Shown: one piece after another, positions 1,290 to 63,599 of the stretch | How positions within the stretch are numbered: the stretch's first letter is position 1 | Layout: each line of letters starts with the position of its first letter | From: Eledone cirrhosa | Taxonomy: Eukaryota | Assembly (NCBI GenBank): GCA_964016885.1 | Contig: OZ024742.1 | Location: 194,866,001 to 194,930,000 of the forward strand | Direction of reading: 5' to 3' | Length of the DNA stretch: 64,000 nucleotides | The notes under the pieces: model-generated | Databases searched by the model: none | What the model was told of the DNA's origin: nothing | What the model saw: the letters and a program-made list of their open reading frames with translations, nothing else | Translations under genes and position numbers: made by a program

Positions 1290-1507
1290 GTAAGATATAA
1301 AAAATCTCATAAATATATGATACCTTAGGCATTGAAACCTTAGGTACCTGCTTTTGTTCCGTGTAGGAACATAAATAAATTATATATATTATATATATAT
1401 ATATATATATATATATATATATATATATATATATATATATATATATATATATATATATATATATATATATATACAGTTAAAAGAATAGAGGTGTAACACA
1501 CAAGTTA

Positions 1508-2152
1508 TTATATATTGGTAAACGGAATAGAAAATGCTGACAAATTGTTCACAGTTGAAAAATGGTTTAATTAGGAATAAAAGAGTATTAGTGATTGTAT
1601 GGGTTAGTATTCAGTTGTGGTTTTAAGTTTTTAAGTTTTTACCGGTTGCGCTTCTAAATGCTTTTCAAAAATAATTTTGAGATAGAGTGTCCGTGCTGTT
1701 TGCTCTGATCTGATTAGTTTTGAGAATTCTACCTGTTTTTATGTTAAAAAAGTGGCTCCAGCGTTATTTTTGTGTTGCAAAAATGCTTGTGGTCAAAACA
1801 ATTTTGATTGGTCGGTAGAGGTCATGTGAATGTAAAAAGTTGATTTTGCGCCAAGACTTGTTTTGAACACAAGCATTTTTGCAACACAAAAATAACGCTG
1901 GAGCCACTTTTTTAACATAAAAAACAGGTAGAATTCCCAAAACTAATCAGATCAGAGCAAACAGCACGGACACTCTATCTCAAAATTATTTTTGAAAAGC
2001 ATTTAGAAATGCGCAACCGGTAAAAACTTAAAAACTTAAAACCACAACTGAATACTAACCCATACAATCACTAATACTCTTTTATTCCTAATTAAACCAT
2101 TTTTCAACTGTGAACAATTTGTCAGCATTTTCTATTCCGTTTACCAATATAT
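1508..2152. mobile_element. Foldback element between (TA)n tracts (~280 bp inverted arms, ~75 bp spacer) with a degenerate hammerhead in each arm
   Basis: 1510-1792 is the reverse complement of ~1868-2150. The right arm contains TTGAAAA-GCAT..ATGC-GCAA-CCGG-TA at 1992-2022. Confidence 0.8.
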
Positions 2153-2458
2153 ATATATATATATATATTAAAATAATAGATTAAAGTTTAAGTAAAGAAT
2201 CGGTGCTTTCATATTATTTATGTATGTTCCTACATTGAACAAAAGTGGCACCTAAGGTTTCATTTCAATGCCCAATATTGACCATATCTCCAGAAAGTAA
2301 GACGAATCAAAATTGTGACCTAATTTTCAGATTAAACCGTATTTTCCTTTTTTCCTTTTTCACACCTACGGATATTTCTATATATATATATACATATATA
2401 TACACACACACACACATATATATATATATATATATATATATATATATATATATATAAA

Positions 2459-2620
2459 TAATTACAACAGTGACATAAACAGGTACTCAAGTTTCGTTGG
2501 GTTCTGGGCTCCAATTTCTTCAGGCTGTCATGAGAGAAATGAAAAAACAAAGCTTTGAACACAACAAAGCCCAGAACCCAACGAAACATGAGTACCTGTT
2601 TATGTCACTGTTGTAATTAT
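2459..2620. mobile_element. Short foldback element; hammerhead-like motif on the minus strand (2479-2528)
   Basis: Arms ataattacaacagtgacataaacaggtactca.gtttcgttgggttctgggct and its reverse complement. The minus strand reads acag-c-CTGAAGA-aattgg..ccaac-GAAAC-ttga-GTA-c-ctgt. Confidence 0.7.
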
Positions 2621-3782
2621 ATATATATATATGTGTGTGTGTGTGTGTGTGTGTGTGTGTGTGTGTGTGTGTGTGTGTGTGTGTGTGTGTGTGTGTGTGT
2701 GTGTGTGTGTGTGTGTGTGTGTGTGTGTGTGTGTGTGTGCGCGCGTGTGTGTGTGTGTGTCTGTCTGTATATGTATTTATATGTATTCAACAAGGAAGAT
2801 GAAAAAAACTTACCTCAACACGTAATTATAAATCTTTAATTTTTAGTTTTAAATTCTTATTAATTCTTTCTAATTGTAATACTCAACATTTGATAAGATG
2901 AATTTTACTAATACATCGAAACCGGTAAATCTTTATATACTTTATATATATTATAAAACTCTTTTTTAAAAGAACTGTCCCACACATTTTTTTCAATAAT
3001 GTCACTTTGACGAATCAAATAAAGGAAAAAAAAAGAAAAAAAGACCCTTAAATATATTTTCCGTGCTATTTCCAATTTCAACTTTTCTCTATAACCACTG
3101 ATTTGTATAGAACCTTACTTCCATTTTCGAATATATATGCATATATATATATATGCATATATATATATATATATTTATATATATATATATATAAATATAT
3201 ATATATATATATATGTATATATGTATGTATATATATATATGTATGTATGTGTGTGCGCGTGTGTGTGTGTATGCATATATATATATGCATATATTGTTTG
3301 CTAATCTCACTCTATTTATCTATCTATTTCGCTCTCTCTCTCTCTCCCTCCACACTCTCTCACTCCTCTTTCTCCCTCTCACTCCTCTTTCTCTCTCTCT
3401 CACTTTCTCTCACTATCTGCATATATTATACACAATGCAAAGAAAAGCAAGAAACAACACAGCCACATTAACCGCTTGTCATCTGCTTCCTATACGTTAG
3501 TAATCCGGTTTTCATAAGAATGGCATAACCTAAAGCATTGAATGTGCCAGTAGCTGTTATGGCATAGCCTACTAGATAATAAGCAGAATACGTAAGATAC
3601 GAATATTTCTTTCGATTCATTGTATCAGTGCAAGTTGAGTAATTCACAAAGTCGATGCCAATATTATTACTAGGTACCACAGGAAAATAACACAAGGTAA
3701 ACAAAATAATTATATATATATATATATATATATATATATATATATATATGTGTGTATATATATATATGTATACTTATATATA

Positions 3783-4730
3783 TTCCTTAATGTAAACTTG
3801 GCAAATGTTTACATGACATTGCACACTTGAGAATGCTTTGAAATATTATGGTAAAATGGAACCCACACCCAAACATATATATCTATATACACCTTCATAC
3901 ACCTATATATAAATATATATATATATATATATATATATATATATATAAGAAGGTAGTACAGCATAATCGAAGCTCTAGTTGCGGACAAGCTAACGAATGC
4001 TGTCAGGATGTGCTGCCAAAAGTACTCAATAAGGAATTTTACCTTAGAGTTATAACATTACGTTTAGACAGCTATGCAAATTGAAGCCAACGACCGAAAA
4101 GCTAGCCGCTAGGACAAGAACAACGAAAATACAGACTCAGGGAAAAGTTTGACTGTTACCTGGACCATCATGGACATATTACATAACATTATACAACATT
4201 TCTACTAGGTTTCTGTTAATCCGAAATCAACAAAATCCATTTGCAGGGGCCTGCAAGTTAATTGGGCTTTGGAAGATAGAACAGTGGAATTTACTTCGTG
4301 AACAGGTTTTCGTTCATCCTCCGCCGGTTTTAAATACTAGTAGTAAACACTGCCAGTAGTCACGTGGATTCTCCGAAGGGAGGTAACCCCCAGTTTATAT
4401 ATATATATATATATATATATATATATATATATATATATATATATATATATATGTTTAACCCTGGTTCAATCGGGGGTAACCACAGTAGGTAAGGTACTCA
4501 ATATATAGCAGAGTATAAATATTTAATATAGAAATGGCTTCTACAGGACTAAGACTGCTTCATTCAGAGGAAATGATGATGATCATCATCATCATATATA
4601 TATATATGGGTGTCTGAAGGTGTATATAGATATATATGTTTGGGTGTGGGTTCCATTTTTACCACGATATTTCAAAGCATTCTTAAATGTTCGTTGTCAT
4701 GTAAACATTTCCCAAGTTTACATTATGGAA
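3783..4730. repeat. ~120 bp inverted repeat pair enclosing nested TA-flanked insertions
   Basis: 3783-3903 is the reverse complement of 4608-4728 with several substitutions. The interior is alternating (TA)n and unrelated short elements. Confidence 0.75.
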
Positions 4731-60983: not shown

Positions 60984-61154
60984 CTGAAAAAAGAAATAAT
61001 TAGCAAACATGTAAATACACAATATTAAATAATATACGTACAACTACCACCCACACATGCACGTACAGATACACAAATGTATATATATATACATATATAA
61101 ATTTTAGCTCTAACATAGTTGTATACATTTATTTGAATTTCGTATATCTAATAA

Positions 61155-61335
61155 TTGCTTCAACTGTTGGCACAAGGCCAGCAATTAACCAGTGCATTAC
61201 TGGTACTTTATTTTATCGACCCCGTAAGTATGAAAGGCAAAGTTCACCTCGACAGGATTTGAACTGACACCGTAAAGTGGCGTAACTATGCTGGAAAGCA
61301 TAGCGTCCGACCCTCTACCGATACTGCCAATTCTA
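61155..61335 (-). mobile_element. tRNA-derived SINE (family 1)
   Basis: Reverse complement of the family 1 unit. Confidence 0.85.
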
Positions 61336-61379
61336 CAGGAAATTCCTATATATGTATATATGTGCGTATGTATATATAG

Positions 61380-62535
61380 GTAAGTATGTATGTATACGTA
61401 CATACATATATGTATACAGACGTACAGTAGCATGTATATATATATATATATACATACATACAGGCACACATATATATGTGTACGTATCAGTTTAGCGAAC
61501 ATTTATTATAATGTTCGCTTTGTTCGTTTGTAAACAAACGGACAGCTGATTTATGCCGTACGGTGTTAAGGCAACCACGTCACCTTTTTGTTCAACACTG
61601 ACACAGGAACGATGTACTAGTTTCAAGCTTGTTAGCTATCGTCAGCACCGTATACCCTTCTGCCAGATGGTTGAACGTTCGAAAGTATATACTTTCCTTA
61701 TGAAAATTAACGGCTGAGCAGCCTAATTTGCATATCGAGTGAGTTTAGTCGGCCAGGCACACCGAAAACGATAAAACGTACACATATATATGTGTGCCTG
61801 TATGTATGTATATATATATATACATGCTACTGTACGTCTGTATACGAATGAAATGAAATTTCATTTCTCACTCTTAGTACGGCACTTACTTAAATGTAAG
61901 TATGTATGTATACGTACATACATATATGTATACAGACGTACAGTAGCATGTATATATATATATATATATATATATATATATATATATATATATATATATA
62001 TATATATATATATATGTATATATATATATATATACATATATACATACAGGCACACATATATATATGTACGTATCAGTTTAGCGAACATTTATTATAATGT
62101 TCGCTTTGTTCGTTTGTAAACAAACGGACAGCCTGATTTATGCCGTACGGTGTTAAGGCAACCACGTCACCTTTTTGTTCAACACTGACACAGGAACGAT
62201 GTACTAGTTTCAAGCTTGTTAGCTATCGTCAGCACCGTATACCCTTCTGCCAGATGGTTGAACGTTCGAAAGTATATACTTTCCTTATGAAAATTAACGG
62301 CTGAGCAGCCTAATTTGCATGTCGAGTGAGTTCAGTCGACCAGGCGCACCGAAAACGATAAAATGGAATAGAATGAAATGAAATTTCATTTCTCACTCTT
62401 AGTACGGCACTTACTTAAATGTAAGTATGTATGTATACGTACATACATATATGTATACACACGTACAGTAGCATTTAAGTAAGTGCCGTACTAAGAGTGA
62501 GAAATGAAATTTCATTTCATTCTATTCCATTTTAT
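61380..62535 (-). mobile_element. Partial tandem array of a hammerhead-bearing non-coding unit (hammerheads at 61609-61651 and 62196-62238)
   Basis: Two near-identical direct copies plus short inverted end segments. Each reads ACGGTG-CTGACGA-t-AGCT-aaca-AGCT-t-GAAA-CTAG-TA-CATCGT on the minus strand. Confidence 0.82.
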
Positions 62536-63599
62536 ATATATATATATATATATATATATATATATATATATATATATATATTTGTATATATATATATTTA
62601 TTAAAATAACAGAATAAAGTTTAAGCAAAGAATCGCTGCTTTCACCCTTAATGGGATCTTCTGAAACTAACAAAGTCAATCTGTAAACGCAGAAGTGGAT
62701 ATTTCAAAAAACGTTGCAACCGGAGGAAGACAGGAAGACGATACTTTGGTTCGTGGAAAAGTTCGCTGGCAAAGAACGGGGAAAAACGAATATAATACGT
62801 CATTAATAGGAGCGGTGAAAAACAATTACGCGCAAAGGCAGAACCACGTTTATGGTATAAAAGAGGTCGTAGACTAATGTTCTCTTAGGTGGTTCATAGA
62901 GACGTTCTCTGGCAATGAACGAAAAAAACGAAGATAGTACGTCATATGTGGAGCGTGGAGAACAATTGCACGCAAAGACAAAACCATGTAAATGGTATAG
63001 CAGAAGTCGTAGACTAAAATTCTAACTAGGAGACCGAATGAATCTCGGCTTCAGAGTTAGGAACAAAGTAAATAAATACAATACAGAGGTAATAGAAATT
63101 AATAAATACATACACGCATATAAATACGTACATACACAAGCATACGCGAAAACACTTACCATAGGTATACAAAACCACGCACATATAAATATATGTGTGT
63201 GTGTGTATGCGTGTATACAAATAAATAAATAATTAAATAAACGTATATAAATAAATAAATACGTATATAACAAGCGCACACACATACCTACATGTAAATA
63301 CACAAATGTTCGGAGACGTAAGTCAACCAAAACATGAAGTACACATATACACACACCCTACATACGTACGAACCAGCATACTCACACAGACGCAAAACTC
63401 CCGTATACACATAACCAAACCATATGTACCAGAATATATAAAATTATACGCCATAACATATATCAATCAAATATACGTACGAGAAGGTATACGTACCTTC
63501 ACAAAACATACAGGTAATATATACTTACCTATGCAAATAAGTAATGGTATAAACAAAACATATACTTAGCTACCACATCAAGACGAAAAATATCCACGT

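Follow-up and report, generated by a model that had tools for sequence, protein, structure and literature searches.

Penelope-like elements (PLEs) of the Hydra clade encode an endonuclease (EN) with a CxCX5C linker and with CxxC and CxH motifs. In Craig et al. (2021), Hydra-1_Obim is listed as targeting (TA)n and carrying a hammerhead motif, and an inverted copy and a one-sided tail are described (PMC8557442). A Poseidon protein cuts and extends both strands in vitro, reverse transcription starts from two sites bracketing the tail, and insertion is independent of ribozyme cleavage (PMC11167929). PLEs have been proposed as the mobilising partner of retrozymes, on the basis of co-occurrence and of similarity between pseudo-long terminal repeats (PMC7229834; 10.64898/2026.07.22.740005), and Li, Clavereau and Pollet (2026) reported retrozymes as derived from PLEs (10.64898/2026.07.22.740005). 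The origin of the inverted 5' copy and one-sided tail of PLEs, and the enzyme that moves retrozymes, stand as open questions in these papers (PMC8557442, PMC11167929, PMC7229834). Here, these systems are compared with a 64,000-nt stretch of the 3.0-Gb genome of Eledone cirrhosa (contig OZ024742.1, 194,866,001 to 194,930,000; the window), which has 33% G+C and many (TA)n tracts. An earlier note made from the letters of the window alone (the first-pass annotation) had read the short islands between these tracts as a swarm of hammerhead-ribozyme mini-elements. It is likely, with a probability of about 0.8, that the islands are instead the 3' ends of many PLE families that carry a type I hammerhead near that end and sit in TA microsatellites, that four non-coding families hitch-hike with them, and that the insertions arose by two-ended priming.

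The hammerhead motifs in the window are real and far above chance. They follow the type I order, with a CUGANGA core or its U3-A8 variant, GAAA, UH and stems I to III. A strict type I descriptor identified five motifs, compared with 0.125 ± 0.33 in 40 dinucleotide shuffles of the window in which the microsatellites were held in place. The strict descriptor missed motifs in which 10.1-11.1 was mismatched or stem II had a bulge, and because it failed on several of the motifs listed in the first-pass annotation, a looser one was adopted under the identical shuffle control; it was drawn up after the strict descriptor and then applied unchanged to the shuffles and to a blind sample of the genome. 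The loose descriptor identified 18 motifs, compared with 0.6 ± 0.8 (maximum 4) in 100 shuffles, and the bare core word occurred 48 times, compared with 19.6 ± 4.5. The anticipated excess over dinucleotide-shuffled sequence was thus seen with both descriptors. The 18 motifs group into nine sequence clusters and are therefore not independent of each other, and two of the four window copies of the 14062 family stem from a local duplication. With seven U3-A8 copies and about eight exact-core or degenerate copies below the stem thresholds (these eight counted by hand), the hand count comes to approximately 30 motifs, variants included, in at least 16 families; the earlier figure of about 25 motifs from at least 10 families was conservative.

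The stemI-core-stemII-GAAA-stemIII-UH-stemI arrangement was found at all 15 coordinates given as examples in the first-pass annotation, and the palindromic stem III words that it named were all present. The exact CUGANGA core stood in 12 of the 15. At 9534-9569(-) the core is mutated in the window copy and intact in its relatives L006 and L136, and at 13396 and 38963 it reads UUGANAA, a compensatory U3-A8 core that is standard for their families: UUGAAAA was present in 33 of 34 copies of the 13396 family, and UUGANAA in 13 of the 17 loci of the 38963 family in which the region was found (29 examined). The view of these two motifs as decayed was dropped once UUGANAA turned out to be family-wide. 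Many islands do carry the motif, as had been claimed; those at 10775-10995 and 27417-27606 hold its 3' half only. A loose U3-A8 scan was noisy (15 hits, six of them from one family, compared with 0-6 in 30 shuffles), so these cores were tallied by family instead. A lone good-looking U3-A8 candidate at 23539-23596(+), approximately 35 nt ahead of a TA tract, has a 4-bp stem I and a palindromic stem III. Stems II of 75-90 nt were observed in the Hydra-type families at 56481-56590 and 41390-41490, and of about 100 nt in the related loci L031 and L037. A 10-kb stretch of another contig (L043; 260000001-260010000) contained 191 CTGANGA words with no hammerhead and no TA tract; the array is probably a satellite.

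The motifs are tied to TA tracts, as had been predicted for distances within 300 nt: a (TA)6+ tract lay that close on the 3' side of 16 of the 18 loose-descriptor motifs, compared with 33% of random positions. The blind sample consisted of 80 stretches of 10 kb (800 kb) at round coordinates, with 43 on the four largest contigs and none on small contigs. In it, (TA)6+ was present within 150 nt 3' of 61 of the 97 motifs and 5' of 20, the 3' value at matched random positions being 18.6%, and the counts of motifs and TA tracts were correlated (rho 0.41). In four families, (TA)4+ came next at 84 of 102 arm ends, compared with 4.8% of random positions. Comparison of the window with itself identified many islands as inverted repeats lying between TA tracts, in which the motif reads away from the centre. 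Of the 83 TA clusters in the window, 46 adjoin a listed element end, a figure that is circular because element ends were partly drawn at the microsatellite mask. The flanks are consistent with the earlier suggestion that such insertions split TA tracts. No empty site was found among the contigs from four runs compared with 11090-12190, and long TA-rich stretches such as 16433-21875 held no loose-descriptor motif.

Sixteen families were traced genome-wide, and upstream open reading frames (ORFs) were counted while each family was walked upstream through its genome loci, which were the best matches to window queries and hence no random sample. Twelve families lead upstream to a GIY-YIG ORF (one link is weak), and nine are of the Hydra type. 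Judged by sequence, these 12 families are the 3' ends of 5'-truncated autonomous PLEs, mostly of the Hydra clade. The clearest case is the minus-strand element at 53280..56634, a Hydra-type PLE with a reverse transcriptase (RT) plus a GIY-YIG at the C terminus, interrupted by stops and frameshifts. A truncated hammerhead at 53367(-) closes its 3' untranslated region (UTR) at one TA tract; the other tract is adjoined by an inverted 3'-end copy (56379-56634; hammerhead 56481-56590(+); ORF link in 19 genome loci). The short islands have this architecture with nearly everything truncated. A Hydra-type remnant at 36780..39219(+) carries a 3' UTR hammerhead with a U3-A8 core at 38963-39001, with an ORF link in 28 loci. 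The ENs of these two elements, at 54074 and 37737, show the CxCX5C linker, and CxxC and CxH around E and N; RWK near 56330(-) and DKT at 36935-36943(+) were identified by eye, in one element each. The remaining Hydra-type families were assigned through tblastn similarity to these ENs and their homologues. Two Hydra-type EN queries each returned approximately 58,000 first-look candidates, which are not copy numbers, with open frames of up to 673 codons. Pfam showed no PLE domain in the seven PLE pieces; the PLE assignment rests on motifs and on 14 unnamed homologues.

The other Hydra-type families were represented by shorter copies. An EN fragment at 40463-40885, within 40340..41549(+), precedes a 3' UTR with a core at 41390 and a long stem II; an inverted 3'-end copy occupies 40340-40460, and related loci include L044 and L065. 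A second EN fragment (63613-63999, within 62598..64000(-); L014, L024) has a 3' UTR that ends in a degenerate hammerhead at 62618-62668, and short pieces of this family lie at 27674-27870 and 2169-2211. The 40111 family forms a head-to-head pair at 39804..40212, with the long end on the left and the short end on the right (hammerheads 39941-39991(-) and 40107-40171(+)); an ORF was found upstream in 6 of 20 loci, and a related subfamily lies at 6258-6508(-), with a hammerhead at 6402-6465. The 3' UTR end at 50400..51042(+), with a hammerhead at 50803-50887, had an upstream ORF in 5 of 14 loci, not counting one further weak hit; the stop-free frame at 50517-50945 was ruled out as an ORF remnant and belongs to the 3' UTR. 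The palindrome at 27417..27606 holds only the 3' half of a U3-A8 hammerhead, with an ORF in 6 of 14 loci, a second window site at 10765-10995 and UUGANAA in 13 of 13 long copies. In this family (27417-27526, and at many loci) truncation recurs at almost the same position within stem II, next to a strong hairpin, leaving most copies without the core. Another palindrome, at 6005..6146, is truncated within its hammerhead; an ORF lies about 200 nt upstream in L008 and L234, and the tail recurs at 25875-25944. The weak link concerns the palindromic 3' end at 2461..2617 (core 2523(-)), for which the ORF was reached through one 78% relative (L112).

The ENs behind the 9534, 13396 and 11303 families are of a non-Hydra type and Neptune/Nematis-like by motif. 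The first is represented by a GIY-YIG fragment at 10068-10790, within 9430..10790(-), whose clade was assigned by motifs only and whose 3' UTR carries the hammerhead at 9534-9569. The second forms a head-to-head pair at 13150..13497, with U3-A8 hammerheads at 13286-13323(-) and 13396-13430(+) and an ORF in 5 of 14 loci, and is duplicated at 14725-15073 and 16217-16430. The third, at 11204..11495(+), is an autonomous PLE 3' end with a hammerhead at 11301-11347 and a short inverted arm at 11211-11240; EN codons were found upstream in 6 of 19 loci, in the longer copies. The family of 11245-11500 was also observed in contigs of two other organisms and is thus not restricted to E. cirrhosa. A local tandem duplication at 13150-16430, with a period of approximately 1,580 bp and a partial third copy, multiplies two of the insertions.

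Each examined family has two fixed 3' ends, a long and a short one, which were first set 36-88 nt apart; the short end of a 317-bp ORF-free family was later reset, giving a tail of approximately 23 nt. After six TA-only hits of this 317-bp family had been removed, 64 head-to-head pairs from five families were classified: 53 joined a long to a short end, four were long-long, one was short-short and six could not be classed. Of the 58 pairs that could be classified, 53 were thus long-short (p = 3e-11 in a binomial test against 50%). Arms were unequal, centres differed from copy to copy, and the 5' ends of short ORF-linked copies were variable; either arm could be the one reaching further 5', a comparison biased by query choice. 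Per-site divergence between arms was 0.03-0.07 within one insertion and 0.07-0.09 between insertions, and minor alleles were common to both arms of one insertion at 19-45% of variant sites, compared with 4-6% between insertions. Among 51 junctions, 25 overlapped by 1-16 bases, three were flush and 23 had extra or unaligned bases.

At 51143-51948 both arms have the long end and, past a short TA run, approximately 170 nt of additional sequence, with a separate short-end piece at 51143-51180; this is one of the exceptions to the long-short rule and possibly due to read-through from a source locus. An inverted pair at 3783-3903 and 4609-4730 surrounds two more islands, and the enclosed 3947-4395 has relatives elsewhere; the pair itself showed no motif and no relative among the family loci compared.

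In four families, the upstream walk returned to the family's own tail, which gave units of 446, 317, 531 and approximately 1165 bp. These units had no match to the PLE protein set, and their longest stop-free frames were 41-106 codons. Two consecutive units with complete motifs were observed for the 446- and 317-bp families, and partial tandems only for the other two; in the ~1165-bp family, its own tail was found upstream in 4 of 19 loci. With one type I hammerhead per head-to-tail unit, the four ORF-free families appear retrozyme-like. The 446-bp unit occurs as a head-to-head insertion at 47876..48828 (hammerheads 48101-48143(-) and 48507-48549(+)), as tandem copies with an inverted end at 61371..62532(-) (hammerheads 61609-61651(-) and 62196-62238(-)) and as tail pieces at 19243-19463 and 52854-52913. 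No cluster in the blind sample is larger (18 of 97 motifs); in that sample, 42 of the 97 motifs have no family label and the 40111 family is undercounted. The 317-bp unit forms a head-to-head insertion at 13640..14231 (hammerheads 13772-13819(-) and 14060-14111(+)), duplicated at 15222-15788, and the 531-bp unit lies at 52146..52737(+), with a hammerhead at 52602-52686. Head-to-head 3' ends of the ~1165-bp unit are found at 51143..51948 (hammerheads 51475-51555(-) and 51573-51651(+)); a start of this 51575 family exactly at stem I was ruled out, as longer copies reach more than 1 kb further upstream. The long-short rule holds in ORF-free families as well (8 of 10 and 11 of 13 pairs). The units thus bear the PLE type of insertion scar, which suggests that they are moved by PLE proteins.

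Further head-to-head pairs were identified for which no parent was reached. The pair at 12238..12536 (cores 12394(-) and 12440(+)) belongs to a family also present at 27189-27392 (hammerhead 27293-27364), and the pair at 5239..5425 (core 5299(+)) has its long end also at 4460-4565; upstream walks from the 12434 and 5299 families ran into low-complexity DNA. The parents of two other pairs were likewise not traced, namely 5572..5959 (cores 5788(-) and 5824(+), with a long stem II) and 1474..2146, which lies between TA tracts and holds a hammerhead-like remnant with a UUGAAAA core and GCAA replacing GAAA. For the 12434 and 5299 families, the ORF matches in L355 and L439 were rejected as evidence of a parent.

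The interpretation offered by the first-pass annotation, of truncated or non-autonomous ribozyme-bearing elements mobilised by PLEs, is partly supported. PLE membership, the (TA)n tie and the presence of both element types stood; the idea of dedicated mini-elements did not stand for most families, which are 3' UTR ends of ordinary autonomous PLEs (12 of 16 traced). Seven of its 15 examples trace to an ORF (6406 via its relative 40111 only) and six to ORF-free tandem units, and for 12434 and 27293 neither was reached. The suggestion that these elements may make up much of the apparently unique sequence was borne out to a degree, as 19,986 of the 56,220 bases outside microsatellites (36%) fall in hand-listed PLE-type intervals, and 18% in the short pieces. 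The head-to-head architecture of one long and one short end, and the U3-A8 cores, were overlooked.

The fold itself shows signs of constraint. In stem II of the 40111 superfamily, two-sided changes were observed at four positions among 34 variants, which are related sequences whose counts are not independent, and three families, spanning two EN types (13396, 38963 and 27417), have U3-A8 in place of C3-G8. The stem II covariation and the U3-A8 cores point to selection on the fold in the source elements. The U3-A8 variant has been reported for Schistosoma PLEs in PMC4209133, the sole paper found for it.

In the proposed mechanism, a PLE protein, likely a dimer, would cut both strands of a TA tract, and two complementary DNAs (cDNAs) would be primed on a single source RNA, with the outer start site used for one and the inner for the other. 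We infer this two-cDNA step from the long-short rule, the alleles shared between arms and what Poseidon PAc does in vitro (PMC11167929). Both cDNAs would usually stop after 50-400 nt, and their head-to-head joining would often involve a few bases common to the two. As the motif lies near the 3' end, even tiny insertions include a predicted hammerhead, and as the insertions hold sequence from both sides of the cut site, the copied RNA would have been uncleaved at the motif. An earlier role is likely for the predicted ribozyme, as a dimer within tandem transcripts from source copies; the scattered motif copies are for the most part likely passengers. The four ORF-free families would borrow the PLE EN and RT.

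A single target-primed cDNA that folds onto itself and is copied back, with resolution at a fixed site yielding the short end, would also produce paired arms. Such a fold-back would account for the rare alleles common to both arms, for the overlaps at 25 of 51 junctions and for the one family that is repeatedly cut beside its strong stem II hairpin. It would, however, tie the longer arm to the end made first, whereas either arm may extend further 5' (with the query bias noted above); moreover, TA follows both ends, which are fixed sites of the family, and extension of both strands from two sites has been observed in vitro for a relative (PMC11167929). We therefore consider fold-back unlikely. 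It is less probable still that most islands are dedicated non-autonomous ribozyme mini-elements with a life cycle of their own, as retrozymes that perhaps pass through RNA circles. The four ORF-free tandem families fit this description, the 446-bp family tops the blind sample (18/97) and 6 of the 15 listed examples fall in ORF-free units, but 12 of the 16 traced families reach a GIY-YIG ORF and their short copies have variable 5' ends.

The inverted repeats flanked by TA could also recall miniature inverted-repeat transposable elements (MITEs), that is, DNA transposons preferring TA in which the hammerhead words would be incidental. The arms are unequal in place of the equal terminal inverted repeats and fixed length of MITEs, two different ends are fixed, the centres shift, the longer copies contain RT/GIY-YIG ORFs and the stems covary, so that a MITE-like reading is largely refuted for the 16 traced families and very improbable overall. 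In AT-rich DNA a loose pattern does pick up matches by chance, at approximately eight false hits per 800 kb with the loose descriptor, including a (GAT)n cluster. As an explanation of the motifs, chance is next to negligible given the excess of 30-fold in the window and 12-fold in the blind sample, the strand bias towards TA and the family structure.

Several observations weigh against the reading of the islands as PLE 3' ends made by two-ended priming. For at least four families of the window (12434, 5299, 5824 and 1516) no parent was traced, no ORF-free unit was paired with a particular partner element, and 5 of 58 pairs violate the long-short rule, with six more unclassed. Later gene conversion, or two transcripts of one locus, could also be the source of the alleles shared between arms. 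A fold better than that of shuffles (z < -2) was seen for only 2 of 10 motifs, and the Rfam model HH9 scored 20.4 bits at 48084-48155 and 12.1 bits at 14053-14125, compared with a gathering score of 52. No hammerhead was among the best 150 of the 412 Rfam rows for the window; these were mainly microRNA-hairpin noise, and each of the 150 was sub-threshold. Published PLE hammerheads show poor cleavage, dimers included, and cleavage was absent in 8 of 9 Xenopus retrozyme dimers (10.64898/2026.07.22.740005). Furthermore, the loci are non-random, with the segmental duplicate L309/L310 entered as two, and the Hydra and Neptune/Nematis-like labels come from motifs and not from a tree.

In the 800-kb blind sample, 97 motifs were identified with the loose descriptor, compared with a mean of 8.3 in 10 shuffles, and 27 with the strict one, compared with 1.8; the motif density of the window is approximately twice that of the sample. 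The genome-wide estimate is 2.0-5.0 × 10^5 for the loose descriptor (bootstrap range) and approximately 9 × 10^4 by simple arithmetic from the strict count. Reported values are 2,000-9,000 PLE hammerheads per genome (PMC4209133) and, in the retrozyme literature, approximately 5,000 in mussel and up to 120,000 in axolotl (PMC7229834). A 2026 repeat annotation of Octopus vulgaris reported a PLE expansion, and hammerheads are unmentioned in the sections consulted. No cephalopod hammerhead census and no long-short rule were found in the literature searched, from which subscription journals were largely missing; for this reason, and because descriptors differ, a record load is provisional. Our broadest interpretation is tentative, and we put it at somewhat below even odds: E. 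cirrhosa would carry the largest animal hammerhead load yet counted (2-5 × 10^5), from a burst of TA-targeting PLE families inserted by a two-strand route, and the same machinery would move the ORF-free retrozymes. If true, the inverted 5' copy and one-sided tail of PLEs would be explained in one step, and the scars would tie retrozymes to PLE enzymes. The very many tiny insertions with two readable ends make the long-short rule, the junction overlaps and the arm alleles testable at scale, and the genome offers a natural library of hammerhead variants, including three U3-A8 families. For annotation, approximately one third of the non-microsatellite DNA of the window is PLE-derived, and the palindromes score sub-threshold on microRNA-precursor models.

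Other features of the window were also noted. A coding-like stretch at 1150-1290(+) ends at a GTAAG donor and, as we take it, resembles transmembrane helix 6 of a neuropeptide G-protein-coupled receptor; the window may lie inside an intron of such a receptor gene. A broken long interspersed nuclear element at 30050-34370(-) has an RVT_1 hit in Pfam, endonuclease-like frames and a glutamine-rich first ORF. An abundant repeat of approximately 190 bp that resembles a short interspersed nuclear element lies at 8855-9051, 20070-20229, 22403-22595, 24712-24863, 46250-46840, 58340-58530 and 61143-61331; elsewhere in the genome, copies of it break up the 3' UTRs of several PLE copies.

The component parts are all of known kinds; what is unusual is the scale and a measurable end-pair rule. 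Like the Hydra clade as described in PMC8557442, the E. cirrhosa elements have a C-terminal GIY-YIG with CxCX5C and CxxC/CxH, a (TA)n target, a sense type I hammerhead near the 3' end, an inverted 5'-truncated copy and a tail at one end only. The differences from that description are at least nine Hydra-type families in the window, compared with one octopus family and few overall; tails of up to 88 nt, compared with 30-40; stems II of 50-90 nt in some Hydra-type families; and U3-A8 cores in two of them, compared with CUGANGA for those Hydra motifs that were consulted in the supplement of that paper. As with the minimal PLE hammerheads of Cervera and de la Pena (2014; PMC4209133), there are many families per genome, mostly single motifs from truncated PLEs, opposite-strand pairs (100-700 bp apart in that report) and palindromic stems III, and the U3-A8 variant has its counterpart in Schistosoma. 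Unlike in that report, as far as its account goes, a (TA)n link and the long-short rule were observed in E. cirrhosa, and U3-A8 in three families of two EN types. The ORF-free tandem units with a type I hammerhead resemble animal non-long-terminal-repeat retrozymes, which range from 150 to more than 1000 nt (PMC7229834; 10.64898/2026.07.22.740005), and differ from those published in their short arrays and in bearing the PLE insertion scar of TA target, inverted arm and two fixed ends. The two start sites that define a tail, and the uncleaved RNA substrate, match those of the Anolis protein Poseidon PAc studied in vitro (Frangieh et al. 2024, PMC11167929), and its cutting of both strands of AT-rich DNA matches the cutting proposed for TA tracts, although it belongs to a different clade. 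The use of both start sites by one insertion, one per strand, goes beyond what is demonstrated for Poseidon PAc in that report and is suggested by the E. cirrhosa pairs.

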